A stretch of 63,964 nucleotides of DNA, the filler included, from Deltaproteobacteria bacterium (GTDB lineage: Bacteria > JAUYMQ01), in assembly GCA_030698575.1 (NCBI GenBank). It is 8 parts of 8 records of this genome, joined end to end, with 100 filler letters (N's around TTAATTAATTAA, not from the genome) between each part and the next. Parts side by side here need not be neighbours in the genome. Positions count along the whole stretch, not along the records: positions 1 to 17,329 come from JAUYMQ010000054.1; 7 more parts are not named here. One strand, written 5' to 3'. Numbering within the stretch: the stretch's first letter is position 1; every line of letters begins with the position of its first letter. A model generated the notes under the pieces. That model was not told the DNA's origin. It was given only the letters and a program-made list of their open reading frames with translations, and did no database searches. A program made the position numbers and the translations under genes. This document shows, one piece after another, positions 669 through 60,864 of this stretch.

Positions 669-760
669 CCCTCGCCAGGTTGGCGGACCCGGTTTTACAG
701 CGACCGCCCACGGGTCTACAATTTCCCCCAGGCCGAGTTTCGACGCCTGGCGGGGAACAG

Positions 761-2731
761 ATGAGACGACGGGACGCCAAAGATCCGGGCCGGCGACCTC
801 CGCCGGAGCTCCTCAAGGGAAACTACGAGCAGTTTCTCGAGAAGATCGTCGAATCGTCGGTCGACGCCATTGTGGCGGCGGACCGGCGGGGAACGATCAT
901 CCTGTTCAACGCCGGCGCGGAGCGCATCTCGGGATACAGCGCCGAAGAGGTGACGGGCCGCCTCAACGTGGAAGCGCTCTACGCCCCGAACGTGGCGCGG
1001 GAGATCATGCGGCGGCTACGGAGCCCGGGATTCGGCGGCCGCGGCAAGCTGCTCGATTCAGTTGAAGCACTCCGCACGAAGGACGGAAGAGAGATCCCCA
1101 TCCACATCTCCGCCGCCACGCTCTACGAAGGGGGCAAGGAGCTGGCGACGGTCGGCATCTTCACCGATCTCCGCGACCTGCTCAGGCTCGAAAAGGGCAT
1201 CCGGGAGTCGGAGGAGCTGTATCGGATGATGGTGGAGCAGGCCGAGGAAGGGATCGGGATCGTTCAGCGCGGGCGCCTGCGCTTCGCCAACCGCCGTCTC
1301 CGTGAAATCCTTCAGATACCACCGGGAGAGTCCCGCAACCTCCAGCTCTCGAAGTTCCTCGACCCGGTGCTCATGCGCACCCTGGGCTTGCTCTCTTCCG
1401 GGAAGCCGGGCGTCGTCGGAGGCGGGCCCCGCGTACTCGAGGCAGCGGCGGAAATACTTGGGCGTCAGGGAGCGAGACGAAGCGTGGAGATCCTCGCCGG
1501 GCCCGTTCCCTACCGCGGCGCCGCCGCCCACCAGATCCACCTGCGCGACGTCTCGGCCAAACGTGAGCTGGAGAACACCTATCGCGTGCTCGTCGATACC
1601 GCGGCCCGGACGCGCCAGGGCATCATTCTGGTGCGAGAAGCCTTCGACGAGCCGGGTGCGGTTCTTTTCGCGAACGAGGAGTTCTGCCGCTTCACCGGAT
1701 GGGAACTCGAGGAGCTGCGCAAGCTTCCGCTGACGCAGCTGTTCACCCCGGAAGGCCTTCGCGTCGCCACAAAGGTCTACCAGCGCCTCATTCGCGGCGA
1801 AGATCTCGGCGCACCTGCGCGGCTAGTTCTTCGCACGCGGGGCGGCGAAACGATCATCGTCGAGGCGAGCACCGCCAGGACGACCTATCAGGGGCGCCCT
1901 GCGCTCATCGGCTACTGTCGCGACGTGACCGCGCACGCTCACCTCGAGCAGTTGATCGACGAGCAATCGCGGGACCTCGCGGACAAGAACAAGGCGCTGG
2001 AAGACATCCTGCATCGCCTCCGTTCCACGCAGGAACGGCTCATCGAGCAGGAGAAGCTCGCGGAACTCGGCACCTTCTCGGCCGGCATCGCCCACGAAAT
2101 CCGGAACCCGCTCGGCCTCATCCGATCTCACCTCAGATCCCTCGAAGTGAGCAGCGATGAGCGCACCAGGGCGCGGGCGCTGCGCGGAATCGAACGGCAG
2201 GTCAGCCGGTCGAGCGACTTCATCGACAAGATCCTCTCCTACGCCAGCCCGACGGCTCCCGTCCGCCGACGCCTCGATCTGAACCGCACGCTCTCGATGG
2301 CGGCGCGCTTCGCGGAAAAGGCCCTGTCGCCTCCGGCGGCGGTGCGCATCCACCGTGAGTTCGAAGAGGGCTTGCCCGCCGTCGCCGGCGATCACACGCA
2401 GCTTCAGGAAGTCTTCATCAACCTGATCACCAACGCCTTTCAGGCGGTCGGCAGGTGGGGCACGATCCGCCTCGTGACCGGCCGTGAGGGGACGGATTGC
2501 TTGCGCGTCGATATCTGCGATACGGGGCCGGGAATCGACGAAGCGTCTCTGGAGGATGTATTCCGTCCCTTCTACACCTTCGGGAAGGGGCGTGAGGGGA
2601 CGGGGATGGGACTGGCGATCGCGCGGCGCATCGTGGAGGGGCACCAGGGAAAGATCAGCGCCATCCGGAACCCGGCTGGCGGAACGACCTTCCGGGTTCT
2701 GCTGCCTCTCGAGGTGCGGGAATCCCGCTGA
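761..2731 (+). CDS. Cytoplasmic multi-PAS sensor histidine kinase
   Basis: Three PAS-like repeats (FNAGAERISGY, FANRRL, FANEEFCRFTGW), H-box AGIAHEIRNPL, N-box NLITNA, G boxes DTGPGI and GTGMGL; no TM segment; start chosen at ATG 761 (ORF track starts at TTG 680). Confidence 0.92.
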   Translation: MRRRDAKDPGRRPPPELLKGNYEQFLEKIVESSVDAIVAADRRGTIILFNAGAERISGYSAEEVTGRLNVEALYAPNVAREIMRRLRSPGFGGRGKLLDSVEALRTKDGREIPIHISAATLYEGGKELATVGIFTDLRDLLRLEKGIRESEELYRMMVEQAEEGIGIVQRGRLRFANRRLREILQIPPGESRNLQLSKFLDPVLMRTLGLLSSGKPGVVGGGPRVLEAAAEILGRQGARRSVEILAGPVPYRGAAAHQIHLRDVSAKRELENTYRVLVDTAARTRQGIILVREAFDEPGAVLFANEEFCRFTGWELEELRKLPLTQLFTPEGLRVATKVYQRLIRGEDLGAPARLVLRTRGGETIIVEASTARTTYQGRPALIGYCRDVTAHAHLEQLIDEQSRDLADKNKALEDILHRLRSTQERLIEQEKLAELGTFSAGIAHEIRNPLGLIRSHLRSLEVSSDERTRARALRGIERQVSRSSDFIDKILSYASPTAPVRRRLDLNRTLSMAARFAEKALSPPAAVRIHREFEEGLPAVAGDHTQLQEVFINLITNAFQAVGRWGTIRLVTGREGTDCLRVDICDTGPGIDEASLEDVFRPFYTFGKGREGTGMGLAIARRIVEGHQGKISAIRNPAGGTTFRVLLPLEVRESR

Positions 2732-2741
2732 CCCGACGGAC

Positions 2742-2757
2742 TGGCACGGGGTTTGCA
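2742..2757 (+). promoter_or_regulatory. Sigma54 (-24/-12) promoter upstream of the response regulator
   Basis: TGGCACGGGGTTTGCA matches TGGCACG-N4-TTGC exactly and lies in the intergenic gap. Confidence 0.8.
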
Positions 2758-4204: not shown

Positions 4205-4222
4205 CCGCGGGCCTCACCTGCC

Positions 4223-4240
4223 TGTTAGGAATTCCTTACA
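4223..4240. promoter_or_regulatory. Putative enhancer (UAS) palindrome for a sigma54 activator
   Basis: TGTTAGGAATTCCTTACA, TGT-N12-ACA with one mismatch from a perfect palindrome, about 190 bp upstream of a -24/-12 element. Confidence 0.65.
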
Positions 4241-4429
4241 CCTCGCCTGTTACGTTCCTGACCGCTCAACGGTCAGGCGATAATCTCCTGAAATTACAGC
4301 CTTTTTATCATTACGCAATCCAGCAGCGCTTTATGGCTGTATCGATCCCTTTACGATTACACGGGTCCGCACGGGGTCGCATCCCCCAAGATCGGGAGGA
4401 ATCAGGGCGCTTGCAAGCCTTTCCTCCGT

Positions 4430-4445
4430 TGGCACGTTCCTTGAA
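4430..4445 (+). promoter_or_regulatory. Sigma54 (-24/-12) promoter
   Basis: TGGCACGTTCCTTGAA: perfect -24 box, correct spacing, -12 is TTGA instead of TTGC; predicted +1 near 4456. Confidence 0.7.
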
Positions 4446-4452
4446 GTAACAG

Positions 4453-4753
4453 GGGTTGGGGATGGCACCCCGACACCGAAACGGGTCGGAAGCGGTGACA
4501 TGGCCCGGGGTGAAAACAAGGGAGCCGGGGCGGTAGCAGGATGAGGACGGAACCCTCCTGAGCGCCAACGGCGGACAAAGGCGCAAAGGGCGCGCCCACC
4601 CGGCACGGAAGCCACAACTCCAGGGCTTCCCCTCCCGGCTCCCTGTCTCACACTCCGTCAGCGCTTTCTCCCGCGAAAGGGGGGGTGAATTTCGGATGGC
4701 CCCCATCCTCAACCCGACAGCGGGCCGGCGGTGAAGAAATTCACCGCCGGCCT
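4453..4753 (+). ncRNA. Putative structured sigma54-dependent RNA (sRNA or long regulatory leader), family not recognised
   Basis: 13-bp closing stem 4453-4465/4703-4715 (one G-U), 11-bp perfect stem 4519-4529/4634-4644, several internal hairpins including two ACGGAA loops, and a 13-bp GAAA-capped hairpin 4723-4752; no credible ORF. Confidence 0.6.
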
Positions 4754-4754
4754 T
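4723..4754 (+). terminator. Strong hairpin, possible terminator or 3' end stem
   Basis: GGCCGGCGGTGAA-GAAA-TTCACCGCCGGCC, but the U tract is short (TT). Confidence 0.5.
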
Positions 4755-4804
4755 GCGGCATCTGGCCTGCAAGCCCCACGTAATCCCGGGGGTGGAGGGC
4801 GACG

Positions 4805-5008
4805 GTGGCACGACGGCGGAAGATCCGGTTCACCATCGCAGAAGAGGATTTCCAGCTCTTGCTGATGCTGGCGCGAACGGAGCGCAAGTCCATCGAGGAA
4901 CTCTTCCGTGAATCCGTGCCTGAAGTTTTGAGCAAGTACAGCTACCTTTGCAGATTTGTCGAGAAGAATGAGTCGTCGCACTTTTTGCATCGAAGAAAGC
5001 AACGGTGA
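4805..5008 (+). CDS. Small putative ribbon-helix-helix (CopG-like) DNA-binding protein
   Basis: GGAGG RBS at 4794-4798 before GTG; alternating strand KIRFTI, helix EEDFQLLLMLAR, turn, helix SIEELFRESV. Confidence 0.6.
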   Translation: MARRRKIRFTIAEEDFQLLLMLARTERKSIEELFRESVPEVLSKYSYLCRFVEKNESSHFLHRRKQR

Positions 5009-5085
5009 CCGGCGTCCATGCATGCACCGCCCGCCATGCCGCCGCGAATACTCTTTCAACAGGCCGCCGTCCGGAGAAACCAGAG

Positions 5086-5343
5086 ATGCCAAGAATGAAG
5101 GACCGGGACAGGAACTGGCCGGTATCACCGGAAGAGCCGAAAGAGAAGGAAACACACGTCGTCGAGTTTCGCATCCAGGACTCCGACTTCAGGACGCTCG
5201 AGGGACTCGCCAGGGCGCGCCAGACCTCGATCGCCAGCCTGGTCAGCCAGGCGCTGCCGCTCATCATCGAGAAATTCAGGGTGCTGCGCGCGCTTGAAAT
5301 CCAGCCCGACGAGCGCGCCGGCTGGCGGCGGAAGAATGCTTAG
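5086..5343 (+). CDS. Second small putative ribbon-helix-helix protein, paralogue of the preceding gene
   Basis: GGAG RBS at 5073-5076; VVEFRI-QDSDFRTLEGLARAR-QTSIASLVSQAL aligns without gaps to the previous ORF. Confidence 0.6.
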   Translation: MPRMKDRDRNWPVSPEEPKEKETHVVEFRIQDSDFRTLEGLARARQTSIASLVSQALPLIIEKFRVLRALEIQPDERAGWRRKNA

Positions 5344-5345
5344 GC

Positions 5346-6875
5346 TCAGTGCCCGACGAAACCGACGAAGAAGAAATAAAGAACGAGGAGCGCCGCGAGG
5401 ATCGGAAGGACACCGACAATGTAGAAGGGCACGCGCGTCCAGGTCTGATCCCCAGGCGGAAGCGGGCGCGGCCACGCCTCGTCCTTCTCCGGCTCTTCGG
5501 CGGGCGGCACGCCGGTCGAACCTCCCGCGCTCCGCGCGAGCAGAGCAAGCGTCGGAAAGTACTCCATGAGCAGAACCCAGGCCGGCACGAGCCCCGACGG
5601 CGCCGCAAACTTCAGGTAGCTGAACCCCGCGGCGCCCGAGAACCAGATCCACGCAGGCGAGAGCGTGACCGCAGAGAGCGCCACCAGCCCCCAGGCGTAC
5701 CAGGGCTCCACGGCCGGCATCACGAACAGCAACCACCCGCCCAGCAGGGCCATCGCGCGGCGGCTCACGCTCCCCGCCGTCTCACCCTTGAAGAGAACCC
5801 GCACCGTGAAGATCAGGTAGCCCGCGAGCAGAATGCGTCCCGCCGATTTGGCGAATCGCCATGGATCGTCGAACCCGGCGACCCAGGCGAGCAGGTAGCG
5901 CAGGGCGGTTCTGACGCCGGCGTTGAACTCCTCGTAGTCCGCTCCCAGCCGGATGGGCAGGTGGCCCCAGAGCCCCCCGTCCATGACTACGAAGGGCGCG
6001 TATCCGACCACGAGCGTCGCCAGAAACGCCAGCGGCAGCCGGGGATCGAAGCCGGCGATTCCGCGCCGCCCCGGCCCGGCCCGCTGCATGAGAGCCGGCA
6101 AAATGACCATTGGATAGATTCGCGCCAGCGTCGCGAGCCCGAGCGCGATCCCCGCGGCACCCCGGCGCCCTTCGAGTCGGAACACAAGCGCCAGCAAGAA
6201 GAACGGAAGCATTAGGGGATCGCTGTGTCCGCCCCGGGTGATCTCGATCACGATGAGCGGATTCCAGAGGTACACCGCCGACTGAGCAAGAGGGCGCCCC
6301 TCGCGGCGAAGCAGCGCGAGGAGGGCGAATACGCCCAGCGCCTCGAAGACAAGGAACGTAAGCTTCAGGCCCAGCGCGTCCGGGCGAAGGGATGCGAGAA
6401 CGGCGAAGACCCATTGTGACAGGGGCGGATAGACTCCAATCACATCAGGGCGGTTCAACTGCATGTGGAGGGCATCGTAACGAAAGGGCGCGAGGGCGGG
6501 CGCGTTCGGCGCAAGGGCGTAGGGATTCACGCCGCCGCTGAAAACGCGGCCGTCCCACAGATACCGGTGATAATCGCTTGAAAGATCCGGATCGCCCGGA
6601 AGCAGCACCAGGCGGAAGAGCACCGCCAGCAGGAGCACGAAGAGAAGGGCCCGCCGGTCACCGGCCGCATTCGTCGGCGGCGTGCGCGCCACCCACAGGA
6701 CCGCCGGCAGGTAGGTGCACCAGAGCAGCCACCAGAGGACGGAGGTGCTGCTGAAGACGGACGGATGCCTGCCCGTGAGAGTGGCGATCAACTCGGGCCA
6801 CTGGTTGTAGCCGGCGTAGATGACCAGGGAGACCAGGCCCGACAGCAGGAGGGATCTCGGCAGACGCTCGTTCAT
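5346..6875 (-). CDS. GT-C fold polytopic membrane glycosyltransferase (GT87/DUF2029-like)
   Basis: LSSDYHRYLWDGRV...GVNPY, YPPLSQ, YLWNPL, GHSD, PWY motifs; many TM helices. Confidence 0.8.
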   Translation of the reverse strand: MNERLPRSLLLSGLVSLVIYAGYNQWPELIATLTGRHPSVFSSTSVLWWLLWCTYLPAVLWVARTPPTNAAGDRRALLFVLLLAVLFRLVLLPGDPDLSSDYHRYLWDGRVFSGGVNPYALAPNAPALAPFRYDALHMQLNRPDVIGVYPPLSQWVFAVLASLRPDALGLKLTFLVFEALGVFALLALLRREGRPLAQSAVYLWNPLIVIEITRGGHSDPLMLPFFLLALVFRLEGRRGAAGIALGLATLARIYPMVILPALMQRAGPGRRGIAGFDPRLPLAFLATLVVGYAPFVVMDGGLWGHLPIRLGADYEEFNAGVRTALRYLLAWVAGFDDPWRFAKSAGRILLAGYLIFTVRVLFKGETAGSVSRRAMALLGGWLLFVMPAVEPWYAWGLVALSAVTLSPAWIWFSGAAGFSYLKFAAPSGLVPAWVLLMEYFPTLALLARSAGGSTGVPPAEEPEKDEAWPRPLPPGDQTWTRVPFYIVGVLPILAALLVLYFFFVGFVGH

Positions 6876-10983: not shown

Positions 10984-11640
10984 CTACTTCGCCGAGTGGC
11001 GAACGTCCCTTCCTTCAACGTAGTAGATGACATCTTCGGCGATATTGGTGGCGTGATCGGCGACCCGCTCGAGGTTGCGCGAGATCAGGAGCAGGTGCAA
11101 GGCGCGCGTAACGACCTTCGGATCCTCGATCATGTAGGTCAGCAGCTCGCGGAAGATCTGCTTGTAGAGCCCGTCCACCTGGTCATCCCGATCGCACACG
11201 TCGAGAGCCTGGGATGGCTTCTGGCGGACGAGGCTGTCCAGACTGTCGCGCACCATCCCCCGTACGATCTCGAAGAGCCTCGGGAGATCGATGTAAGGCT
11301 TCAGCGGCGGCTCCTCGCTGAGGGCCAGGACCGCCTGGGCGATGTTGACGGCGGAATCACCCACGCGCTCGAGGTCGTTGTTAATCTTTATGACGGCCGC
11401 GACGAAGCGCAGATCGACAGCCGCCGGCTGGTAGCGCGCCAGCACGCTGTAGCACATTTCGTCGAGGTCCATCTCGATGCGGTCCACCTCGGGATCACTC
11501 TTGATAACGTGTTTAGCGAGATCGGCATCCCGCTCCATGAGAGACTTCTCGGCCTGATCAAGCATCGCCTCGACCAGCCCTCCCATCCGCAGAAGGCTCT
11601 GGCGAATTTCGTCGAGATCGCGATCCAGCGTCCGTTCCAT
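10984..11640 (-). CDS. phoU: Phosphate signalling protein PhoU
   Basis: QPAAVDLR, DLERVGD, NLERVADHATNIAE; downstream of pstB. Confidence 0.97.
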   Translation of the reverse strand: MERTLDRDLDEIRQSLLRMGGLVEAMLDQAEKSLMERDADLAKHVIKSDPEVDRIEMDLDEMCYSVLARYQPAAVDLRFVAAVIKINNDLERVGDSAVNIAQAVLALSEEPPLKPYIDLPRLFEIVRGMVRDSLDSLVRQKPSQALDVCDRDDQVDGLYKQIFRELLTYMIEDPKVVTRALHLLLISRNLERVADHATNIAEDVIYYVEGRDVRHSAK

Positions 11641-11700
11641 GCATACCCCGCCAATTGAGCCCGGCTTTCATCCGCGCCGGGCGGCGTCTTCGTCGCGGTT

Positions 11701-12549
11701 TCAGCCAAAGCGCCCGGTGATGTAGTCCTCTGTCTGCTTCTTCCTCGGCCTGATGAACAAAGTCTTCGTTTCAGCATACTCGATGAGCCGGCCATGGTAC
11801 AGAAAGGCCGTGAAGTCGGAGACGCGGGAAGCCTGCTGCATGTTGTGGGTAACGATGATCAGCGTGTAGCGCTTCTTGAGCTCCTGCATCAGCTCCTCGA
11901 TCTTCGCCGTCGCCACGGGATCGAGCGCCGAGCAGGGCTCATCGAGCAGAATGACGTCGGGCTCGACGCTCAGAGCCCGGGCGATACAGAGGCGCTGTTG
12001 CTGCCCGCCGGAGAGGCCGAGGGCGCTCTCGTCCAGCCGGTCCTTCACCTCGTCCCAGAGCGCCGCGCCCCGGAGACCCCGCTCGACGATCTCGTCCAGG
12101 TCGCGCTTGCGTCTGATCCCGTGAATCCGACAGCCGTAAGCGACGTTCTCGTAGATCGACTTCGGAAAGGGGTTTGATTTCTGGAACACCATGCCGATCC
12201 GCTTCCGCAGGCTGTTCACCTCCACGCTCGGGTCGAGGATGCTTGCGCCTTCGAAACGGATGTCCCCCTCGATCCTCACCTCATCGATCAGATCGTTCAG
12301 GCGATTGAAGCAGCGAAGCAGGGTCGATTTCCCGCATCCCGAGGGGCCGATGTACGCGGTGATCTGCCGGCTGGGAATGTCCATGCTGATGTCGTGTAGC
12401 GCCTGGCTCTCGCGGTACCAGAACGACAGGGAATCGATCTGGAAGAGGGCATCCTTGATTTCGGGGCGAACCGCATCATCGGTCCCCATCGCGGAGACAT
12501 CGGACTCCATCCATTCTCCCTCGTTCACGGGCGAAATCTTGATTTCCAC
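11701..12549 (-). CDS. pstB: Phosphate ABC transporter ATPase
   Basis: [43 protein letters not shown]. Confidence 0.97.
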
Positions 12550-12569
12550 CTGGAGTTTACCTCCGATCC

Positions 12570-14222
12570 TCAGATCGCACTAGAGGCGTATTTGCGCCGC
12601 AAGCGGTTCCTCACCACGATGGCGGCCACATTCATCAGTGTCACCACGAGCACCAGCAGAAGCGCGGTGGCGAATACCAGCGGGGTGGTGGCCTCGACGT
12701 TGGGGCTCTGGAATCCGACGTCGTAGATGTGAAATCCGAGGTGCATGAACTTCCGCTCGAGATGAACGAAGGGAAAGTGGTGATCGAGGGGGAGCGTGGG
12801 CGCCAGCTTGACCATCCCGACGATCATGAGCGGCGCCACCTCCCCGGCCGCCCGGGCCATCGCAAGGATCATGCCGGTAAGGATTCCCGGGGCGGCGGCC
12901 GGGAGCACCACCCTCCGGATCGTCTCGAACTTGGTCGCGCCGAGCGCCAGCGACCCCTCCCTCGTGCCGCGCGGCACGGCGGCGAGCCCCTCCTCCGTGG
13001 CAACGATCACCACGGGAACTGTCAGGAGCGCGAGAGTAAGGCTGGCCCAGAGAATTCCGCCGGTTCCGTAGGTTGGCGTGGGGAGAGCGTCGGGGTAGAA
13101 GAGCCGGTCGATGGAACCGCCGACAAGATAGACAAAGAATCCAAGTCCGAAGACGCCGAACACGATGGAGGGGACGCCCGCCAGATTGTTCACCGCGATA
13201 CGAACCGTCCGCACCAGCACTCCCTGCTTCGCGTACTCGCGGAGATAGAGGGCGGCGAGCACCCCCAACGGGACCACCGCGATCGACATGATGAAGACCA
13301 TGAGGACCGTGCCAAAGATGGCCGGAAAGATGCCGCCCTCGGTATTGGACTCACGGGGGTCGTCCCACACGAACTCCCGGACGCGGCCGAGGTAGAGCCC
13401 GGCGCGATCGAGCAAGCTCATGGCGTTAGGCCTGACGGCCCGCACGATCTCGCCCACCGCGATCGCATTCCGCTCGCCGTCGGCGGTCTCCATCACCAGC
13501 TGCTCCTCCGCGAGGGACTCGCGCTCCTCGAAGAGCCGGTCGGCGAGGACCTGGTACTGGGCCTCCCGCTCCTTCGTCTCGTGCGCGATGGCCGCTTCCT
13601 GCAGCGCGCGCTCATCCGGGGAGAGATCTCGCCGCGCCAGCCGCTTCCCCGCGAGGCGGAGCCGCTCGATCTCGAAGTTGATATCGCCAATTTCGCCCCT
13701 CTCGAGCCGTTCGATTGCCTCTCGCCGGGCCACCTTCTCCTCGTGGAGCGGCCCGAAGGCGCGCCACACTTCGTCCGGGCCGCGGGCCAGGACCTCGTCG
13801 CCCCGGCGGAGCTCCACCGCCCTGCCGTAAAAGTGTCCCCACTCCAGGCGCTCGAGCAGAAGCGCATCCTCCGGGTAGGAAATCTCCGCAATCTGATCAT
13901 CGTCAATCCAGACGAAGCCCGCTCCGGTCACGTCCCGGTTACCGACCCTGAGCTGGAGCCGCCCCGTCATCTCGAGCGTCTTGCCCGGCGTGGGGGGCCG
14001 CTCCTCCCGGCCGCTGATCTCCCCGAGCAGGCGCCGGCCGTCCTCGAGGCGGCAGAGGGCAACCCGGCCCTGCCAGAAGTAATCGAGACCCCGGTAACCG
14101 ATGAACCCGATGACCGCAACAATCATGAGGAGATTGAACGCAAGCGCGCCCCCGCACAGCCAGGTGAGGGATTCACCCACCCGCTCGCTCCGCCGCGTCC
14201 GATCATCCCGGCCGAGATTCAT
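12570..14222 (-). CDS. pstA: Phosphate ABC transporter permease, long form
   Basis: [37 protein letters not shown]; large coiled-coil-containing insertion. Confidence 0.95.
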
Positions 14223-14235
14223 GAAAAGCGTCCTC

Positions 14236-16542
14236 TCACAACTGCGCGTAGCGGCGGCGCAGTCGCTGGCGCACCAACTCCGCGGCGGTGTTCACCACGA
14301 AGGTCAGAATGAAGAGCAGGAGCGCCGCCAGAAAGAGGGTCCGGTAGAGGGTGTCACCCCGGGGCGCTTCGGGAATTTCGACCGCGATGTTGGCCGACAG
14401 CGTCCGGAACCCGTTGAAGGGGTTCCAGTCCATGATGGGCGTATTCCCTGTGGCCATGAGCACGATCATCGTCTCTCCGACCGCGCGGCCAAAGCCGATC
14501 ATCACAGCGGAGAAGATGCCCGGGCTGGCGGTGGGAAATACGACACGCGTCACCGTCTGCCAGCGACTGGCCCCCAGCGCCAGGGAGCCGCTCACGAGGT
14601 TCTGGGGAACATTCGAAAAGGCGTCCTCGGAAATCGAGAAGATGATGGGAATGACGGCGAACCCCATGGCCATTCCCACGACGACCGCGTTGCGCTGGTC
14701 GTAGGCGAGACCGGTCGTCGCCGTGAGCCACTCCGGGAAGTTCCCGCCGAAGGCGAGGGACTCCAGGAACGGCGACAGCTCGATGCAGAACCAGATACCG
14801 ACGGCCAGCGACACCGTGAAGGGAAGGACCTCCATCCCGACGGGGAGCCGCGCAGCAATGCGGGACCGAAGGCTTCGAACCGCCCACCCTGTGAGGAGCA
14901 CGAGGGCGGGCAGGATGAGGAGCATGAGGAGCAGTGACGGGAGCACCTGCTCGAGGCGCGGCGCCAGCCAGAGCCCCGCGAGAAAGCCCAGCACGACGCT
15001 GGGCAGCGCCGCCATGATCTCGATCGTGGGCTTCACGTAGTTCTTCAGCGCCGGGTGCATGAACTGCGACGCGTACATCGCCCCGAACACCGCCAGGGGA
15101 ATGGCGAGAATCAGGGAGTAGAGCGTGCCCTTGAGGGTGCCCACCAGCAGCGGTGTGAGGCTCAGCTTGGGTTCGAAGGCATCCGAGGCGCTCGACGACT
15201 GCCAGACGAACTCCGGGCTGCCGTAGCCCTCGTACCAGACGCGGCCGAACAACGCGCGAAGCGAGACCTGGGGGTGGGGATTGCGGATCGACAGCTCGGC
15301 CAGGCCGCCCTCCCCCGTGACAAAGGCTGCGTCGGCCTTCGGCGAGAACGCGAGTGCCCCGGGAGCGCGCACGGGCGCTTCACCCGTCCAGAGCGTCCGC
15401 CCCGAAGTCGAATAGTAAAGACCCATCCCGCCCCTCGCATCCATCGCGAGGAAACCCTTGTCGCGCTGCGAGGAGGAGATCCAGCGAATCGCGGCCGCGT
15501 GCGGGGGAAAATCGCGTATGCGCTGGAGGGCGTAGCTCCCGTCCTCCCGCGGAACGCGGAACCAGACGCTCAGCGCGCCGTCGGCCTCACCGACCACCAG
15601 CGCCTGTCCACCGATGAGGAGCGCCAGCGCGGTGATACCGCCTCCCGCGGTTCTCGCTTCCTCCGGCGGCCCGAGGGTGGCCCCCGAGAGAGGCCAGGCG
15701 AACAGCCTGCCGTCCGCCGTGCCGCCGTACAGCCGCCGGCCGTCGGGCGCCATGGTGAGGCAGCTCAGGCGGAAGGCCAGCGGAATTTCACCCCTCACGA
15801 TACTTTCGGTGATCTCGCCCGTGAGCAGGTTCTCCCGCGAACTGCGGCGCAGGACGGCCAGCGCGCCGCTCTCGAGCTGGCCAGCGACCGTCGCTCCTTC
15901 CTCCCCGAGATGGACGGCATGCACCGCGACCGGGCCGCCGGAGGGGTCGAGGGGCACCACGACCGGCGGGTCGATGCCCGGGGTAGTCACCCGATCCTGC
16001 GCGTCGAACGTAACGGGCCAGCGGACGCGGCCGATGGCAACCCGGCCGTCGGAAGTCGACGCCGAGACGATCCCGCGCGTGGGCTGGGAAGAGAGGTCGA
16101 GCAAGGTGAGAGGTGTAGCGCCCGCTTCCGCAGAACCGGCGGAGGGATGCTCCGATCGGGCTGCTGGATCAGCTGGCGGTATGAGGGGCTGCCGGAGGAC
16201 GATCTCGCCGTCCTCCACCCGCAGGACGGTGAGGGACCCCGCGGTGTCCAGGCCGGCCACGAAGGTGCGGTGCTCGTCCGCCAGGAGGGTTAGCAGCGAC
16301 GCGGATGGGAGCGAAACGATCCGCGCCACGCGAACCGTCGCCCCCGATAGCAGCGGCCATACCTCCATCAGGATGAAGACCAGGATGCCGAGAATGCTGG
16401 CGATGATGAGCAGCCCGCCGGCCGAAACCGTCCAGCGGGCGATTCGATCGGCCCGGAGCCGGCGCGCGGTCGCGCCGTTCAGCGACCAGCGGCGAGCGTC
16501 GACAAGGCGCGAGGGCGAAGCATCCTCCGGAACGACGCTCAT
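14236..16542 (-). CDS. pstC: Phosphate ABC transporter permease with large beta-propeller-like extramembrane domain
   Basis: PLLVGTLKG, ALPSVVLG, GRAVGETMIVLMATGN, TLSANIA; start chosen at ATG (MSVVPED). Confidence 0.93.
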   Translation of the reverse strand: MSVVPEDASPSRLVDARRWSLNGATARRLRADRIARWTVSAGGLLIIASILGILVFILMEVWPLLSGATVRVARIVSLPSASLLTLLADEHRTFVAGLDTAGSLTVLRVEDGEIVLRQPLIPPADPAARSEHPSAGSAEAGATPLTLLDLSSQPTRGIVSASTSDGRVAIGRVRWPVTFDAQDRVTTPGIDPPVVVPLDPSGGPVAVHAVHLGEEGATVAGQLESGALAVLRRSSRENLLTGEITESIVRGEIPLAFRLSCLTMAPDGRRLYGGTADGRLFAWPLSGATLGPPEEARTAGGGITALALLIGGQALVVGEADGALSVWFRVPREDGSYALQRIRDFPPHAAAIRWISSSQRDKGFLAMDARGGMGLYYSTSGRTLWTGEAPVRAPGALAFSPKADAAFVTGEGGLAELSIRNPHPQVSLRALFGRVWYEGYGSPEFVWQSSSASDAFEPKLSLTPLLVGTLKGTLYSLILAIPLAVFGAMYASQFMHPALKNYVKPTIEIMAALPSVVLGFLAGLWLAPRLEQVLPSLLLMLLILPALVLLTGWAVRSLRSRIAARLPVGMEVLPFTVSLAVGIWFCIELSPFLESLAFGGNFPEWLTATTGLAYDQRNAVVVGMAMGFAVIPIIFSISEDAFSNVPQNLVSGSLALGASRWQTVTRVVFPTASPGIFSAVMIGFGRAVGETMIVLMATGNTPIMDWNPFNGFRTLSANIAVEIPEAPRGDTLYRTLFLAALLLFILTFVVNTAAELVRQRLRRRYAQL

Positions 16543-16586
16543 CGGATCCTCGTCAGGCCCCGTTCCCGCCGCCCCCCGCCGGGCTG

Positions 16587-17329
16587 CTACTGCAGCTTGG
16601 CAAGCTCCTGCGCAACGAGACGCTCGGGTAGCGGGAGATAGCCGTCCTTGACGACGACCTGCTGGCCGTCCCGGCTGAGCACGTACTTGATGAACGCGCC
16701 CACCAGCGGATCCAGCGGCTTGTTGGGGGTCCTGTTGACATACAGATAGAGGAAGCGGGCCAGAGGGTATTCGCCGGAGATGACTTCCTCGTAGGAGACC
16801 CCGTAGGCGGTTCCGCCTGCCTCCTTGGAAACCTTGAGCGCCTTTACGCCGGAGGTCCGGTAGCCGATCCCGCTGTAACCGATGCCGTTCACGTCCTCGG
16901 TCACGCCCTGGACAACCGAGGCGGAACCCGGCTGCTCCTTCACAGTGTCCTTGTAGTCGCCGCCAAAGAGCGCATGTTCCTTGAAATAGCCGTACGTGCC
17001 GGACGCCGAGTTTCTTCCGTAGATACTGAGCGGCCGCGTGGCCCACGGGCCGGTGAGGCCGAGATTGCCCCAGGTCGCGATGTCCTTCGGGGCCCCGCCG
17101 AGCCGGGTCTTCGAGAAGACGGCGTCAAGCTGCGGGAGGGTGACGCTCTCGAGGGGATTGTCCTTGTTCACGTAGACCGCCAGGCCGTCGAGTGCCACGC
17201 TGATCTGCGTGGGCTTGTAGCCGAATTTCGATTCGAAGGCGTCGATCTCGGTCGATTTCATCGCCCGGCTCATCGGACCAATCTGCGCCGTGCCCGATAT
17301 GAGCGCGGGCGGGGCCGTCGACGAGCCCT
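16587..17329 (-). CDS. pstS: Phosphate-binding protein (5' truncated by contig end)
   Basis: GSSTAPPALISG...GPMSR, GRNSASGTYGYF, YPLARFLYLYVN. Confidence 0.95.
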
Positions 17330-46384: not shown

Positions 46385-46471
46385 CGGCCCCGGCCACGCG
46401 CGCAGGTGGGACGCTCTCGGCGCGATCTCCCGCTCCGAAACGCCGCTCTCTGGTTGAGGGGTCGAAGCGCG

Positions 46472-47863
46472 ATGAATTCCCATCGCAGCCAGGGCGAGTT
46501 TCCTCCTGAGACTCGCACGGCACCGCTTACCGATGCGACTCGCCGGCACGCCGCCGAAGCTCCCAGGCAATGGCTGAAGGCGCTACTAAACGGGAATGGG
46601 TGGTTCGATCGCGCCGCCATTGTCCGGCACGTGGCGCTCTCTGCTGCTGCAGGCGCAGCTTATCTTTTTCGGGGCACACTGGTCGCGCGCCCCGAGATCC
46701 TCTGGATCATCGCTGCCGCGTTGCTCCTGAACTGTCTGATCCTCCTTCTTCCGAAATCCACCAGAGGCCTGTCCGTAGCGCGGATTGCCTCGTCGGCCGC
46801 CGGGGTTTCCGGCTGGACGCTCCTCATCTACTTCACCGGGGGCATCACATCACCTTTTGCCGCGGGACTTGCGCTCGAGGTGGTCCTGGCCGCCCGGACC
46901 TTCGGCTTGAACGGGATAGCGCCCGTCACGTTCGTTGCGACGTGCGGCCTCTGGCTGCAGCAGCTGCGGCTGGGGCTGGCGAATGCGGTGACCCCGCTCC
47001 TGGTGCAGACGTCCATGCTCCTGCTTCTCGGCGGCCTCATATTCTTCCTGGCGCGGTACTGGTCGCGCGAACAGCGGGCGCTTTCCGACGAGGGGGAGCG
47101 CATCAGGCGCCGGCTCCTGACGCTGGAGGGGGAGCTTGCCGCGGCGCCTCGCATGGAGGAGATCGGCGAGAACGTGGCCAGGCTCGCCCACGGGTGCAAG
47201 AACACGATCCACAGCCTGAAGGGGTTTGCAGCCCTCATCGAGCGGCACCTCCGGAACGACGACGAGAGCGCGCGCACGCTTGCCGGGCTGCGCGCGGCGA
47301 TCGACCAGCTGGAGGGGCTGGTGCGAAGCACCTTGCTCGCGGGCGGGGCGCAGGGCGCGGCGAGCGGCTCCACCGACGGGGAGCGGCTCGGAAAGCTGAT
47401 GGAGGAGACGAGGATCGAATCGTCGTCGGCGTACCCGCAGGTTCAGTGGCGCGTCCTAGCAAACGGCGGAATGCCCGCGGTCGGGGTGCCCCCCGAGATC
47501 ATCAAGGACGTGCTTCTCGAGCTGTGCACAAATGCGGCGGCGGCCGTGGAGACGGCCGTGGAGGCCCCGGGCTGCGTGACCCTCGAGACCTGCGCCCATG
47601 AGGCGTTCCTCTGCCTCCATGTGCGTGACGAGGGGTCAGGCATCGCTGAGGCGTCGAGGTCTCGAATCTTCGAACGCGGGTTCTCCACGAAGCCCGAGGG
47701 GCACGGACTGGGACTTTTTCTGTCTCGCCGCTCTCTCATGCTGCACGGCGGCGCGCTCGAGGCGAGACCCGCACCGCACGGGGGCGCGCTGTTCTGCATG
47801 CGTCTGCCGGTTGCCGGCGATCGCTCCCGCCCGCCCGGGCTCCCGCGGAGGGCCGCGCCATGA
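46472..47863 (+). CDS. Multi-TM sensor histidine kinase
   Basis: About 5 TM with TGGITSPF loop, H-box LAHGCKNTI, DEGSGI, FSTKPEGHGLGL; start uncertain. Confidence 0.88.
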   Translation: MNSHRSQGEFPPETRTAPLTDATRRHAAEAPRQWLKALLNGNGWFDRAAIVRHVALSAAAGAAYLFRGTLVARPEILWIIAAALLLNCLILLLPKSTRGLSVARIASSAAGVSGWTLLIYFTGGITSPFAAGLALEVVLAARTFGLNGIAPVTFVATCGLWLQQLRLGLANAVTPLLVQTSMLLLLGGLIFFLARYWSREQRALSDEGERIRRRLLTLEGELAAAPRMEEIGENVARLAHGCKNTIHSLKGFAALIERHLRNDDESARTLAGLRAAIDQLEGLVRSTLLAGGAQGAASGSTDGERLGKLMEETRIESSSAYPQVQWRVLANGGMPAVGVPPEIIKDVLLELCTNAAAAVETAVEAPGCVTLETCAHEAFLCLHVRDEGSGIAEASRSRIFERGFSTKPEGHGLGLFLSRRSLMLHGGALEARPAPHGGALFCMRLPVAGDRSRPPGLPRRAAP

Positions 47864-49236
47864 CGACCCCCGCTATCCTGGCCGTCGAGGACGACGCCGC
47901 GGCGGCGGAACTCCTTCGGCTCGCGCTCGAGGGTGAAGGATTCGAAGTCCGCCTGGCCGCAAACGGGATCGAAGCGATCCTCGCGATGGAAACCGCCCTG
48001 CCGGACCTGGTGATCTCGGATCTCAGGATGCCGGAGATGGACGGGCTCACGCTTCTCTCTCGCGTCAAGCAACGCTGGCCCGCGGTTCCCTTCATCCTCG
48101 CGAGCGTGGAGGACGACATCGCGACGGTCGTCGAGGCCGTTCAGATGGGCGCGGTCAACTACCTGGTGAAACCCTTCTCGCCGGCGCTCCTGACCCTGGC
48201 CGTGCGAAAAGCGCTCCACAAGTCGCCCCCGCGCCAGGCCGGGGACGGCGCGCTCGGCGAGATCGTCGGCCGTAGCAGGCAGATCGTGGAGGTGCGCCAC
48301 GCAGTCGCCGTGGCGGCGCGGAGCGACGTGAACGTCCTGATAACGGGAGAGACCGGAACCGGAAAGGAACTGGTGGCCCGCGCCATTCATCGATGTTCAA
48401 AGCTATCGCTCGGTCCCTTCGTAGCCGAGAACTGCGCCGCCATCCCGCCGGAACTCTTCGAGAGCCAGTTTTTCGGGCACCGCCGGGGCGCCTTCACCGG
48501 CGCGGATCGCGATCACGCGGGCCTTCTCCAGCGCGCGGACGGCGGCGTGCTCTTCCTGGACGAGCTCGAGAGCCTCGGTGCGATTCACCAGGCGAAGCTG
48601 CTCCGGGTCCTGGACGACGGGGAGATCCGGCCGGTCGGCTCGAGCGAGGCGCGACAGATTTCGGTGCGGTTTCTGGCGGCGACCAACCGGGATTCGCAGT
48701 CGATGATTCGAGCAGGCCAGTTGCGCGAGGACCTTTACTACCGCCTGCGGGGATTCGAGATTCACCTGCCCCCGTTGAATGCGCGCCGTGATGATATTCC
48801 CCTCCTGGCGGCGCACTTTCTCCGAGGGGAAGCGAGCGCCCTGACGCCGGAGGCTCTGAAAGTCCTCCGGGCACGGTCATGGCCGGGCAACGTGAGGGAG
48901 CTGCAGAACGCCATCCGGAGCGCCGAGAGTCTCGCGGCCGGGGCACCGATTGGCGTGGAGCATCTGTCTTTCGGCGCCGCGTTCCCGAACCCGGAAGCAA
49001 CCGCGGTCGCAGAGCCGTGCCGGCTCCTCCGCGCGGCCGAGCGCGGGGCGATTGTCGAGGCGCTTCGCGTCTCCAACGGCAAGCGGAGCGAGGCGGCGCG
49101 GAGGCTCGGGATCGATCGCTCGACCCTCAGGCGCAAGTTGCGCGAGTTCGCAATCGATCCCGCGCCGCCATCGGCCGATCCGTCACCCCCGGCCGGCCCG
49201 CCCCCGAAGCCCCCCCGGGACCAGCTATTTAATTGA
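47860..49236 (+). CDS. Sigma54-dependent response regulator
   Basis: REC (VEDD, DLRMP, KP), GETGTGKE, GAFTGA, WPGNVRELQN, Fis HTH. Confidence 0.95.
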   Translation: MTTPAILAVEDDAAAAELLRLALEGEGFEVRLAANGIEAILAMETALPDLVISDLRMPEMDGLTLLSRVKQRWPAVPFILASVEDDIATVVEAVQMGAVNYLVKPFSPALLTLAVRKALHKSPPRQAGDGALGEIVGRSRQIVEVRHAVAVAARSDVNVLITGETGTGKELVARAIHRCSKLSLGPFVAENCAAIPPELFESQFFGHRRGAFTGADRDHAGLLQRADGGVLFLDELESLGAIHQAKLLRVLDDGEIRPVGSSEARQISVRFLAATNRDSQSMIRAGQLREDLYYRLRGFEIHLPPLNARRDDIPLLAAHFLRGEASALTPEALKVLRARSWPGNVRELQNAIRSAESLAAGAPIGVEHLSFGAAFPNPEATAVAEPCRLLRAAERGAIVEALRVSNGKRSEAARRLGIDRSTLRRKLREFAIDPAPPSADPSPPAGPPPKPPRDQLFN

Positions 49237-49376: not shown

Positions 49377-49391
49377 TGGCACGCGCCTTGC
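49377..49391 (+). promoter_or_regulatory. Sigma54 (-24/-12) promoter
   Basis: TGGCACGCGCCTTGC, exact consensus match about 90 bp upstream of the ATG. Confidence 0.85.
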
Positions 49392-49480
49392 TCTTGGACT
49401 CTGCTACCACGCTGAGGATGGGCTGCCGTCTTGTCTTCACCGCGGTTCTTCCCAACGTAATTAACCACAGGAGTGCAACT

Positions 49481-49969
49481 ATGAGAGCCATGCTCAAGAC
49501 GAGCCTGATTGTCCTTGCCGTCGGCCTTGCGCTGACCTTTGCCTACGGGGATGCTTACGCGGCTGGATGCTGCCAGAATCAGTCGCCGTCGAACGGCCAG
49601 GGACAGGACGACGACCTCAACTCCGGGCCGCTTCCCGATCCGGGCTGTACCACGGAACCGGCTGCAAGCCCTGACTGCTACCGTTTCGACAACTTGCAGG
49701 AGTTCTGGAATGACAGCATCTGCACGGGGTCTGACCCGGACGGCGCAGGACCAGCAACCGGAGATTCATGCCTGGAAAACGCCGATTGCACGGATAGCGG
49801 TGTCCCTGCCGCCTGTTGTACAGGATCTGGCACTGGAACCTGCGGCGTGACGGACTCGGAGCCAGCGTTCGTGCCTGCCCTTTCGACATGGGGAGTTCTG
49901 CTGTTCCTCATGCTGGGTGGTGGGTTGATCCTGCTCCGGCGGTCTCGGTCCGGGATGTCGGGCGTGTAG
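49481..49969 (+). CDS. Secreted Cys-rich protein with IPTL-CTERM-like sorting signal
   Basis: AGGAG RBS; signal peptide ending AYA; 10 Cys; C-terminus VPALSTWG + TM + RRSR. Confidence 0.85.
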   Translation: MRAMLKTSLIVLAVGLALTFAYGDAYAAGCCQNQSPSNGQGQDDDLNSGPLPDPGCTTEPAASPDCYRFDNLQEFWNDSICTGSDPDGAGPATGDSCLENADCTDSGVPAACCTGSGTGTCGVTDSEPAFVPALSTWGVLLFLMLGGGLILLRRSRSGMSGV

Positions 49970-59957: not shown

Positions 59958-60764
59958 ATGAATCTGAAGGAGCTCAAGGAAAAGAAGATCAGCGAACTGA
60001 CCGCCATGGCGCGCGACCTGAAGGTCGAAGGCGCCGGCGGCTTGCGAAAGCAGGATTTGATTTTTGCAATTCTGCAGGCGCAGGCCGAGAAGGAAGGGCT
60101 GATCTATGGCGAGGGGGTCCTCGAGATACTCCCGGATGGCTTCGGCTTCCTGAGAGCGCCCGACTACAACTACCTGCCTGGTCCCGACGACATTTACGTG
60201 AGCCCTTCCCAGATCCGACGCTTCAACCTGCGCACCGGCGACACGGTGGCGGGGCAGATCCGGCCTCCCAAGGAGGCGGAGCGCTACTTCGCGCTCCTCA
60301 AGGTCGAGGCGCTCAACTATGAAGAGACCGAAGCTTCTCGCGACAAGATCCTCTTCGACAACCTGACGCCGCTCTATCCGCAGGAGCGGTTAGTCCTCGA
60401 ATACGAGCCGAAAAACTTCTCGACGCGGGCGCTCGACATGATGACGCCCATCGGGAAGGGACAGCGCGGGCTCATCGTGGCGCCGCCCCGAACCGGAAAG
60501 ACGATGATGCTTCAGGCCATCGCCAATGCCATCACGAGGAACCACAAGGAAGTGATCCTCATCGTGCTGCTCATCGACGAGCGGCCGGAGGAAGTGACCG
60601 ACATGGAGCGCCACGTGGACGGCGAGGTCATCAGCTCGACCTTCGACGAGCCGCCGACGCGGCACGTCCAGGTGGCCGAGATGTTCATCGAGTAGGCGAA
60701 GCGCCTCGTCGAGCACAAGCGCGACGTGGTCGTTCTGCTCGACTCCATTACGCGCCTCGCGCGG
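59958..60764 (+). CDS. rho: Transcription termination factor Rho (3' truncated; in-frame TAG at 60693-60695)
   Basis: [47 protein letters not shown]; frame resumes [23 protein letters not shown] after the TAG. Confidence 0.97.
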
Positions 60765-60864
60765 NNNNNNNNNNNNNNNNNNNNNNNNNNNNNNNNNNNN
60801 NNNNNNNNTTAATTAATTAANNNNNNNNNNNNNNNNNNNNNNNNNNNNNNNNNNNNNNNNNNNN
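60765..60864. other. Artificial contig linker
   Basis: N run with TTAATTAATTAA. Confidence 0.99.

Follow-up and report, generated by a model that had tools for sequence, protein, structure and literature searches.

The stretch analysed here, referred to as the window, comprises 63,964 nucleotides (eight parts joined end to end, filler included) from assembly GCA_030698575.1 of a Deltaproteobacteria bacterium, and its first record, JAUYMQ010000054.1, carries a gene for a PAS-domain sensor histidine kinase followed by the gene for an NtrC-family response regulator, a sigma-54 enhancer-binding protein. The gap after this activator gene holds an inverted repeat, a promoter element of the -24/-12 type and a sequence of about 300 nt predicted to fold into a rod closed by pairing of its two ends. 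Very probably, the locus encodes a conserved, structured noncoding RNA element linked to a sigma-54 promoter. Past the element lie two small genes for ribbon-helix-helix-like proteins and a convergent gene for an integral membrane protein (Table 1). The order of the neighbourhood, which runs from an M16 peptidase through the kinase, the activator, the gap and the small genes to the convergent GT87-like membrane protein and a 792-aa protein, is kept in related loci, with the kinase syntenic in loci L086, L087 and L082. The true start of the activator gene lies at 2822 and its 460-aa product is designated P0001; both the kinase and the activator score under every NCBIfam equivalog cut-off.

Table 1. 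Positions in the window of the features discussed in the text
Feature	Position	Strand	Basis or remarks
PAS-domain sensor histidine kinase	680-2731	+	Pfam PAS, HisKA, HATPase_c
Second sigma-54-type -24/-12 element, TGGCACGGGGTTTGCA	2742-2757	+	Pattern match; between kinase and activator, 65 nt before the activator start codon
NtrC-family response regulator / sigma-54 enhancer-binding protein, 460 aa	2822-4204	+	Pfam Response_reg, Sigma54_activat, HTH_8 (REC, AAA+, Fis-type helix-turn-helix)
Inverted repeat TGTTAG-GAATTC-CTTACA, TGTTAGGAATTCCTTACA	4223-4240	.	About 200 bp upstream of the promoter
Second conserved TGT-containing site	4247-4264	.	Alignment; CTGTYA invariant in 7/7
Third, weaker TGT...ACA element	~4338-4361	.	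About 90 bp before the promoter; alignment uncertain in the window
Sigma-54-type promoter TGGCAC-GTTCC-TTGAA, TGGCACGTTCCTTGAA	4430-4445	+	-24 GG at 4431-4432, -12 region at 4441-4445
Probable structured noncoding RNA, ~300 nt	4453-4757	+	End-paired irregular rod, apical multi-hairpin junction, 3' hairpin
Invariant 5' block GGGGATGGCACC, 5' strand of basal helix P1	4458-4469	+	Invariant in 7/7; pairs with 4682-4687 and 4703-4710 in the fold
Conserved 3' block GGTGAA-NNN-CGGATGGCCCCCATCC, 3' strand of P1	4684-4708	+	Invariant except for 3 nt in the window; split by a 15-nt bulge
GC-rich 3' hairpin, 13-18 bp	4719-4757	+	18-pair helix, 3 pairs changed on both sides
Small ribbon-helix-helix-like protein 1, 67 aa	4805-5008	+	GGAGG 7 nt before a GTG start; 62-84% identity in L083-L086
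Small ribbon-helix-helix-like protein 2, paralogue of protein 1	~5083-5343	+	Start uncertain, conserved part ~5161-5343; 39-53% identity in L082-L086
GT87/PIG-U-like integral membrane protein	5346-6875	-	Pfam, weak; convergent; 57% identity in L082; part of the conserved neighbourhood

Fold and conservation of the element

The initial annotation had described a closed multibranch fold downstream of the activator gene, and each of its helices was recovered where it had been placed: complementary stretches occur at 4453-4465 (GGGTTGGGGATGG) and 4703-4715 (CCATCCTCAACCC) and again at 4519-4529 (AGGGAGCCGGG) and 4634-4644 (CCCGGCTCCCT), and a 13-bp hairpin with a GAAA loop, GGCCGGCGGTGAA-GAAA-TTCACCGCCGGCC, follows at 4723-4752. 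Exactly these pairings are contained in the ViennaRNA minimum-free-energy fold of 4450-4760 on the + strand, which has an energy of -170.6 kcal/mol and a z-score of -6.42 (0 of 100 dinucleotide shuffles fold as well); the minus strand of the same region gives a z-score of -3.68. When the window sequence and its six homologues, described below, were folded individually, the 5' end (GGGGAUGG-CACCC) was paired to GGGUG...CCAUCCCC in 7/7, forming a basal helix, P1, beyond which a long irregular rod leads to an apical junction of two to four hairpins, again in 7/7. The 3' strand of P1 is interrupted at about 4688-4702 by a bulge that repeats GGAUGG, an invariant 15 nt reading AAAGACGGAUGGCCC (AAUUUCGGAUGGCCC in the window). 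CCAUCC has a choice of partners, the 5' end or a local one, and the long-range pairing of P1 is favoured by 2.0-5.3 kcal/mol in all seven sequences. The GC-rich 3' hairpin sits 6-10 nt past P1 in every one of them. The 3' block occurs once in the window, and Tandem Repeats Finder reported a single 2.2-copy repeat of 10 nt in the spacer (4360-4381) and no tandem repeats in the RNA itself. The bulge was also considered as a kink-turn, a reading rejected because visual inspection showed no GA on the opposite strand.

Metagenome contigs were scanned with an alignment of the orthologue-specific C-terminal 90 residues of the activator, and 114 stretches matched; 18 of them encode relatives and seven (L081-L087) encode orthologues, which are 66-75% identical over the part of the activator that each locus holds. 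A protein search returned a small group of orthologues (P0002-P0007) at 72-78% identity, after which the next relatives are P0008, labelled Deltaproteobacteria bacterium, at 53% and all others at 49% or less. With the activator as query, species-representative genomes gave paralogues at 47% identity or less and no orthologue among the matches listed, and a search of the phylum to which the genome with the most similar Rho belongs (401 genomes, four candidates scored in each) gave paralogues only, at 48% or less. Out of 5.8 billion proteins, just 9 are orthologous to the convergent membrane protein (56-77% identity). The source lineage is rare and uncultured; Rho, which is 77-80% identical to that of seven genomes labelled Deltaproteobacteria, Thermodesulfobacteriota or Syntrophales and 62-76% identical to that of other phyla, gives a weak hint on its placement; one more comparator, flagged as unpublished, was left aside. 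The activator has two peculiarities of its own: its sigma-54-contacting loop, canonically GAFTGA, is GAYTDA in every orthologue and GAFTDA in P0008, and its receiver domain carries a 4-residue insertion (PPKQSVEGG) past the phospho-acceptor strand that is missing from paralogues.

The homologue set used for the element consists of seven sequences, the window and L081-L086; L087 ends 96 nt after the activator stop codon. By blastn, a 49-nt block (window 4683-4730) recurs about 470 nt after that stop codon in 6/6 loci with enough downstream DNA, so the element accompanies the orthologous activator wherever the locus extends far enough. Three blocks are invariant in 7/7, namely the promoter core TTGGCAYGNTCCTTGAA, the 5' block GGGGATGGCACC and the 3' block including CGGATGGCCCCCATCC, while the flanks of the promoter and the interior of the RNA vary. 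Promoter pattern and 3' block alike are confined to the six orthologous loci among 98 fetched. A 95-position model of the 3' part scored its own seven sequences at 79-112 bits and found nothing below E 0.05 in the other 93 sources (674,187 bases).

Although the interior sequence is variable, it stays paired across the seven homologues. The + strand fold has a z-score of -5.7 to -8.3 in 7/7, as compared to -0.3 to -1.9 for the seven upstream spacers. Covariation was assessed by applying the RNAalifold consensus (91 pairs, 625 cells) to a MAFFT alignment made from sequence only, with 500 shuffles and slid controls for comparison. Standard pairs filled 90.7% of the cells, as compared to 85.6% in shuffles and 43-46% in slid controls; 24 of the 91 pairs were changed on both sides (8.7 +/- 2.3 in shuffles, 6-13 in slid controls); and the covariation score was 0.236 (0.156 in shuffles, 0.075-0.105 in slid controls). 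None of the 500 shuffles reached the observed value in any of the three measures, and base pairs of the proposed fold covary. An alignment coded for both sequence and structure, which is biased towards structure, gave 92.8% paired cells and 23 of 88 pairs changed on both sides, with 3-11 in slid controls. An example of compensatory change in the 3' hairpin is GGCCGGCG/CGCCGGCC versus GGCCAGCG/CGCTGGCC. In addition, three C-to-U substitutions in the 3' strand of P1 leave G-U pairs intact on the + strand alone. Part of the stretch occurs in 20 public runs of 14 studies, one of them an RNA library. Four of the runs were compared; the remaining 16, mostly with small shares, do not bear on habitat or presence. 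DNA runs labelled aquatic, marine sediment and sediment contain near-identical copies. Two DNA runs showed variants at 12 sites in the spacer 4287-4409 and at 4 in the RNA, all in its variable apex; none of the four is compensatory, two being unpaired and two breaking pairs in the apex.

The element corresponds to no known RNA family, 6S included, in line with what the initial annotation had supposed. Rfam 15, whose families include 6S, Pxr, CrcZ, GlmY/Z, Qrr, CsrB/Rsm, T-box and riboswitches, gave 0 matches at gathering cut-offs in the window and in eight related loci, and permissive scans of the window, L086 and L084 gave best scores of 10.9-19.8 bits against cut-offs of 35-100, with E values of at least 0.47, which is chance level. 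ARAGORN found neither tRNA nor tmRNA. T-box, retron and Y-RNA readings were rejected for the missing Rfam match and the wrong neighbour genes. No description of this RNA was found in the literature, the search having covered articles but not the supplements of RNA-motif catalogues.

Promoter, upstream sites and downstream genes

The -24/-12 element that had been reported between the activator gene and the RNA is indeed present at 4430-4445 and is the invariant core noted above. The 64-kb window contains three matches to the pattern TGGCAC-N5-TTGMW, where 0.05 are expected. By the usual promoter spacing, transcription is predicted to start at about 4453-4457. The palindrome of the initial annotation, TGTTAGGAATTCCTTACA, likewise lies where it was described. 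At this position all six related loci hold TGTYAA-N6-TTRACA, the window form being TGTTAG-N6-CTTACA, so that the half-sites differ between lineages yet keep their symmetry, as expected for the binding site of a dimer; among 100 fetched loci, the TGTYAA-N6-TTRACA repeat occurs in six, the orthologous ones only. The inverted repeat is a probable upstream binding site of the activator, and two further TGT-containing sites lie between it and the promoter (Table 1). An A/T-rich block (AACTTTTGAGAATC...TTT consensus) at 4290-4320 is also conserved between the upstream repeats and the promoter, and could be a DNA-bending site of the IHF type.

A second -24/-12 element precedes the activator gene itself in 4/4 loci covering the spot (window 2742-2757, L082 207-222, L086 1006-1021, L087 2788-2803), at a distance from the gene of 65 nt in the window and 88-98 nt in the other three. 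Because this canonical element is found in all four covering loci, it suggests that the activator gene may be sigma-54-dependent as well, possibly by positive autoregulation.

Two small genes follow the element. Their products are weakly similar to each other, and the ribbon-helix-helix assignment of protein 1 derives from a weak Pfam Antitox_RHH match (E 0.12); the Atlas neighbours of the small proteins are RHH_3/RHH_1/CopG clusters at 0.92-0.93, to be taken as leads only. Both genes are present in the window and in L083-L086. Elsewhere they are unstable: L082 has one fused small gene (2223-2684), and L081 retains the last ~24 codons of the second gene (1572-1700) right after the RNA, which is intact in both loci. 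The spacer between the 3' hairpin and the start codon ranges from 45 to 125 nt across loci. The hairpin itself is a probable 3' end of the RNA or a partial terminator. A type III toxin-antitoxin RNA was considered and rejected: the RNA has no tandem direct repeats, Rfam gave no match, and the proteins encoded downstream resemble ribbon-helix-helix proteins and not ToxN.

Proposed function and competing explanations

The reading favoured here is that the element is a new noncoding RNA family, that the two-component system next to it has this RNA as its direct output, and that the RNA acts in trans on its own; this whole chain is given a probability of about one half. Under this proposal, the PAS kinase would phosphorylate the NtrC-type activator, which would bind the TGT-N12-ACA inverted repeats about 200 bp, and probably also about 90 bp, upstream of the promoter and remodel sigma-54 RNA polymerase at TGGCAC-N5-TTGAA (4430-4445). 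Transcription would begin near 4455, and the transcript would form an end-paired rod of about 260 nt in which the 5' end GGGGAUGGCACC is paired with the 3' block, leaving the invariant 15-nt bulge (...CGGAUGGCCC), with the GC-rich hairpin 4719-4757 next. Most transcripts would stop at this hairpin and some would read through into the two ribbon-helix-helix genes. The RNA would then act in trans via its invariant basal helix and bulge, most likely by binding a protein in a sequestering or scaffolding role; a protein-binding RNA is preferred to a seed-pairing small RNA (sRNA) because the molecule is almost wholly base-paired. Sequence comparison shows that the promoter, the upstream repeats, the fold and the gene order are conserved; dependence on sigma-54 and on the activator, the transcript ends, the action in trans and the partner are all points that we infer from sequence. 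An RNAduplex comparison of the conserved 3' block with 42 start regions of the window was uninformative (-29.6 kcal/mol for the first small gene, with a median of -23.8 and unremarkable neighbours). It is conceivable, if a long shot, that the basal module, in which a paired UGGCAC resembles the -24 box and lies opposite the 15-nt bulge, docks either part of the sigma-54 machinery, be it holoenzyme or activator, or the ribbon-helix-helix proteins encoded alongside, such that the RNA would feed back on its own pathway. If so, sigma-54 transcription would have a regulator resembling 6S, or ribbon-helix-helix proteins their first dedicated RNA partner.

Several observations weigh against the proposal of a trans-acting output RNA. 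The homologue set is small, with seven sequences from three sub-lineages, five of them close to each other. P1 itself gains no confirmation from covariation, since 6 of its 9 pairs are invariant. The -12 dinucleotide of sigma-54 promoters is near-universally GC, and here it reads GA. In L087, the 96 nt past the activator stop codon (4271-4366), after which the contig ends, differ from the other loci and lack the upstream repeat. Metatranscriptomic run X13 provides one 156-nt contig (depth 3.2, 1 mismatch) at 4563-4718, wholly inside the RNA, with zero cover elsewhere; it says nothing on the regulator or the small genes, and it is a weak hint only, because DNA carry-over is possible and contigs show no ends. 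Finally, the small genes follow the RNA in 5/7 loci, no sigma-70-like promoter was called before them in the window, L084 or L086, and the 3' hairpin has no canonical U-tract and was not called a terminator in the same three loci. Unless an unrecognised promoter exists, the small genes would thus need read-through from the element.

These last points lead to the main alternative, less likely but quite possible, that the element is a cis-acting 5' leader: the sigma-54 promoter would drive one mRNA for both ribbon-helix-helix genes, and the structure and hairpin would be an attenuator, a stability element or a sensor. The small genes begin 45-125 nt past the hairpin, have a Shine-Dalgarno sequence of their own and keep their synteny in most loci, read-through of a hairpin without a U-tract is plausible, and the two near-isoenergetic CCAUCC pairings could act as a switch. 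However, no conserved antiterminator was seen on inspection of the alignment by eye, which was not a formal search, and the one candidate, GUCGCCGGC of L081, which recurs upstream, is not retained in L084. Nor do P1 and the hairpin overlap, so that formation of P1 cannot control the hairpin. The variable spacer also speaks against a leader, as does the loss or fusion of the small genes in L081 and L082 with the RNA intact, although these events look recent, and pairing of 5' and 3' ends is generally commoner in stable RNAs.

A sponge of the CsrA/Rsm type, which would use its GGA motifs, that of the invariant bulge ACGGAUGG among them, to titrate a translational regulator like CsrA, is quite improbable. 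The bulge does resemble the CsrA consensus from in vitro selection (SELEX), RUACARGGAUGU, and each RNA contains 9-14 GGA as compared to 5.5-7.5 expected from composition (UCC, 6-8). Most of these GGA are predicted to be paired, however, with only one or two per RNA having a mean unpaired probability of at least 0.8; the conserved GGA of the bulge itself stands at 0.41-0.48, and there is no repeated array of GGA in hairpin loops.

Still less probable is a control region acting at the DNA level, in which the GGATGG/CCATCC repeats would serve the ribbon-helix-helix proteins, or some other factor, as operators and the RNA fold would be incidental. The sequence GGATGG-CCC-CCATCC forms a perfect 15-bp palindrome some 100 bp ahead of the first small gene, GGATGG is found a third time at the predicted start site, and none of these blocks varies, which fits a protein-binding site on DNA. 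Such a region leaves unexplained the 24 compensatory pairs over about 250 nt, the z-scores in every homologue and the strand-specific preservation of G-U pairs. An operator role may nevertheless coexist with an RNA function.

That the element is a protein-coding gene, for a small + strand protein or a 166-aa minus-strand product (4311-4811), is hardly credible despite long open reading frames (ORFs) on both strands and an invariant AUG within GGGGAUGGCACC, as GC3-based gene calling found nothing at 4205-4800, ORF lengths and frames are not conserved (24 aa from this AUG in the window and ~77 aa in L082, both by hand translation, and 130 aa in L081), indel lengths break the triplet frame (2 nt between L081 and L082), the invariant blocks are invariant also at would-be wobble positions, and the minus-strand products have in common only residues encoded by the invariant block. 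No ORF is conserved across the interval, which supports the initial annotation in its view that there is no credible one, but it left unmentioned the two conserved small genes that begin about 50 nt past the hairpin.

Relation to known RNAs and other features of the window

Circuits that join a two-component system, sigma-54 and a regulatory RNA are known in Pseudomonas, Vibrio, enterobacteria and myxobacteria. In the CrcZ/CrcY systems of Pseudomonas, genes for a kinase and an NtrC-type activator (CbrA/CbrB) and a sigma-54-dependent RNA of several hundred nucleotides stand in a row, the RNA being the main output, and CrcZ acts via repeated unpaired A-rich motifs that bind Hfq/Crc. The locus described here has the same succession of kinase, NtrC-type activator and predicted sigma-54-dependent RNA of several hundred nucleotides. 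Its RNA differs from CrcZ in being paired over nearly its whole length; it lacks any recurring single-stranded motif and has no Rfam match. The initial annotation had proposed an undescribed kinase-activator-RNA module analogous to CbrA/CbrB-CrcZ; the layout, the promoter and the conserved structured RNA support that analogy, whereas a protein sponge in the manner of CrcZ has no specific support and the type of module is not new. 6S RNA is also a long imperfect rod closed by pairing of its 5' and 3' ends, and it acts by binding a protein. The RNA here has no Rfam 6S match at E up to 10, a large conserved bulge at the base of the rod rather than a central bubble, an apex that is a multi-hairpin junction, and a promoter of the sigma-54 type.

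Other sigma-54-dependent sRNAs are encoded beside their own activator genes, among them GlmY (GlrK/GlrR) and NrsZ (NtrB/NtrC). Qrr1 (LuxO) is another (PMC10162802), and the sigma-54 regulome of Desulfovibrio vulgaris includes four non-coding RNAs (PMC4641369). GlmY, Qrr1 and NrsZ are shorter than the RNA described here and of other architecture, and none was matched in the Rfam scans. The layout matches that of pxr in Myxococcus xanthus and relatives, an sRNA gene that lies downstream of nla19, a sigma-54 response regulator, across a 262-nt spacer with a predicted sigma-54 promoter and enhancer site (PMC5568312). The two share an RNA with a multi-stem fold directly downstream of a sigma-54 response regulator, with a spacer of 226 nt here as compared to 262 nt for Pxr; Pxr, in contrast, has ~108 nt in three stem-loops, as opposed to ~300 nt in an end-paired rod, and is followed by NADH dehydrogenase rather than by ribbon-helix-helix genes (PMC5568312). 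No Pxr family was among the Rfam matches at E up to 10. The circuit is therefore of a kind already known, that of sigma-54- and activator-dependent RNAs beside their own two-component systems, while the RNA itself, as judged from its sequence, is a new family, because it has no Rfam match, is three times the length of Pxr, forms an end-paired rod and is followed by ribbon-helix-helix genes.

The locus extends this circuit to a rarely sampled, uncultured lineage and provides a sigma-54 promoter that is naturally conserved although its -12 element is non-canonical. Large structured bacterial RNAs without an assigned family are uncommon, and each so far has revealed new biology. The context is unusually complete, with a kinase, an activator, enhancer sites, a sigma-54 promoter and downstream regulators, which makes the induction signal and the function approachable by reconstitution in a tractable host.

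Elsewhere in the window, a second kinase/sigma-54 activator pair (46406-47863 and 47860-49236) is followed 140 nt later by TGGCACGCGCCTTGCT (49377-49392). A second activator is thus also followed by a -24/-12 element, indicating that the organism uses sigma-54 promoters next to their activators. After TGGCACGCGCCTTGCT comes a gene for a 162-aa, Cys-rich, secreted-looking protein (49481-49969) with a signal peptide and a C-terminal VPALSTWG, hydrophobic stretch and RR tail, which we take to resemble a CTERM sorting signal; the protein has no NCBIfam match. A run of N at about 60690-60820, either a scaffold gap or a masked stretch and immediately preceded by what looks like a frame change, cuts rho (59958-60695) to 245 aa, as compared to open frames of 419-540 aa in comparator genomes, as well as the 5' end of the next gene, for a PD-(D/E)XK nuclease. 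This disruption of rho and the nuclease gene is an assembly artefact and not biology. A phosphate-transport cluster on the minus strand (10984-17046) encodes PhoU, a PstB-like ATPase and two unusually long permeases (550 and 936 aa) in which BPD_transp_1 is found only at the C-terminal ends.

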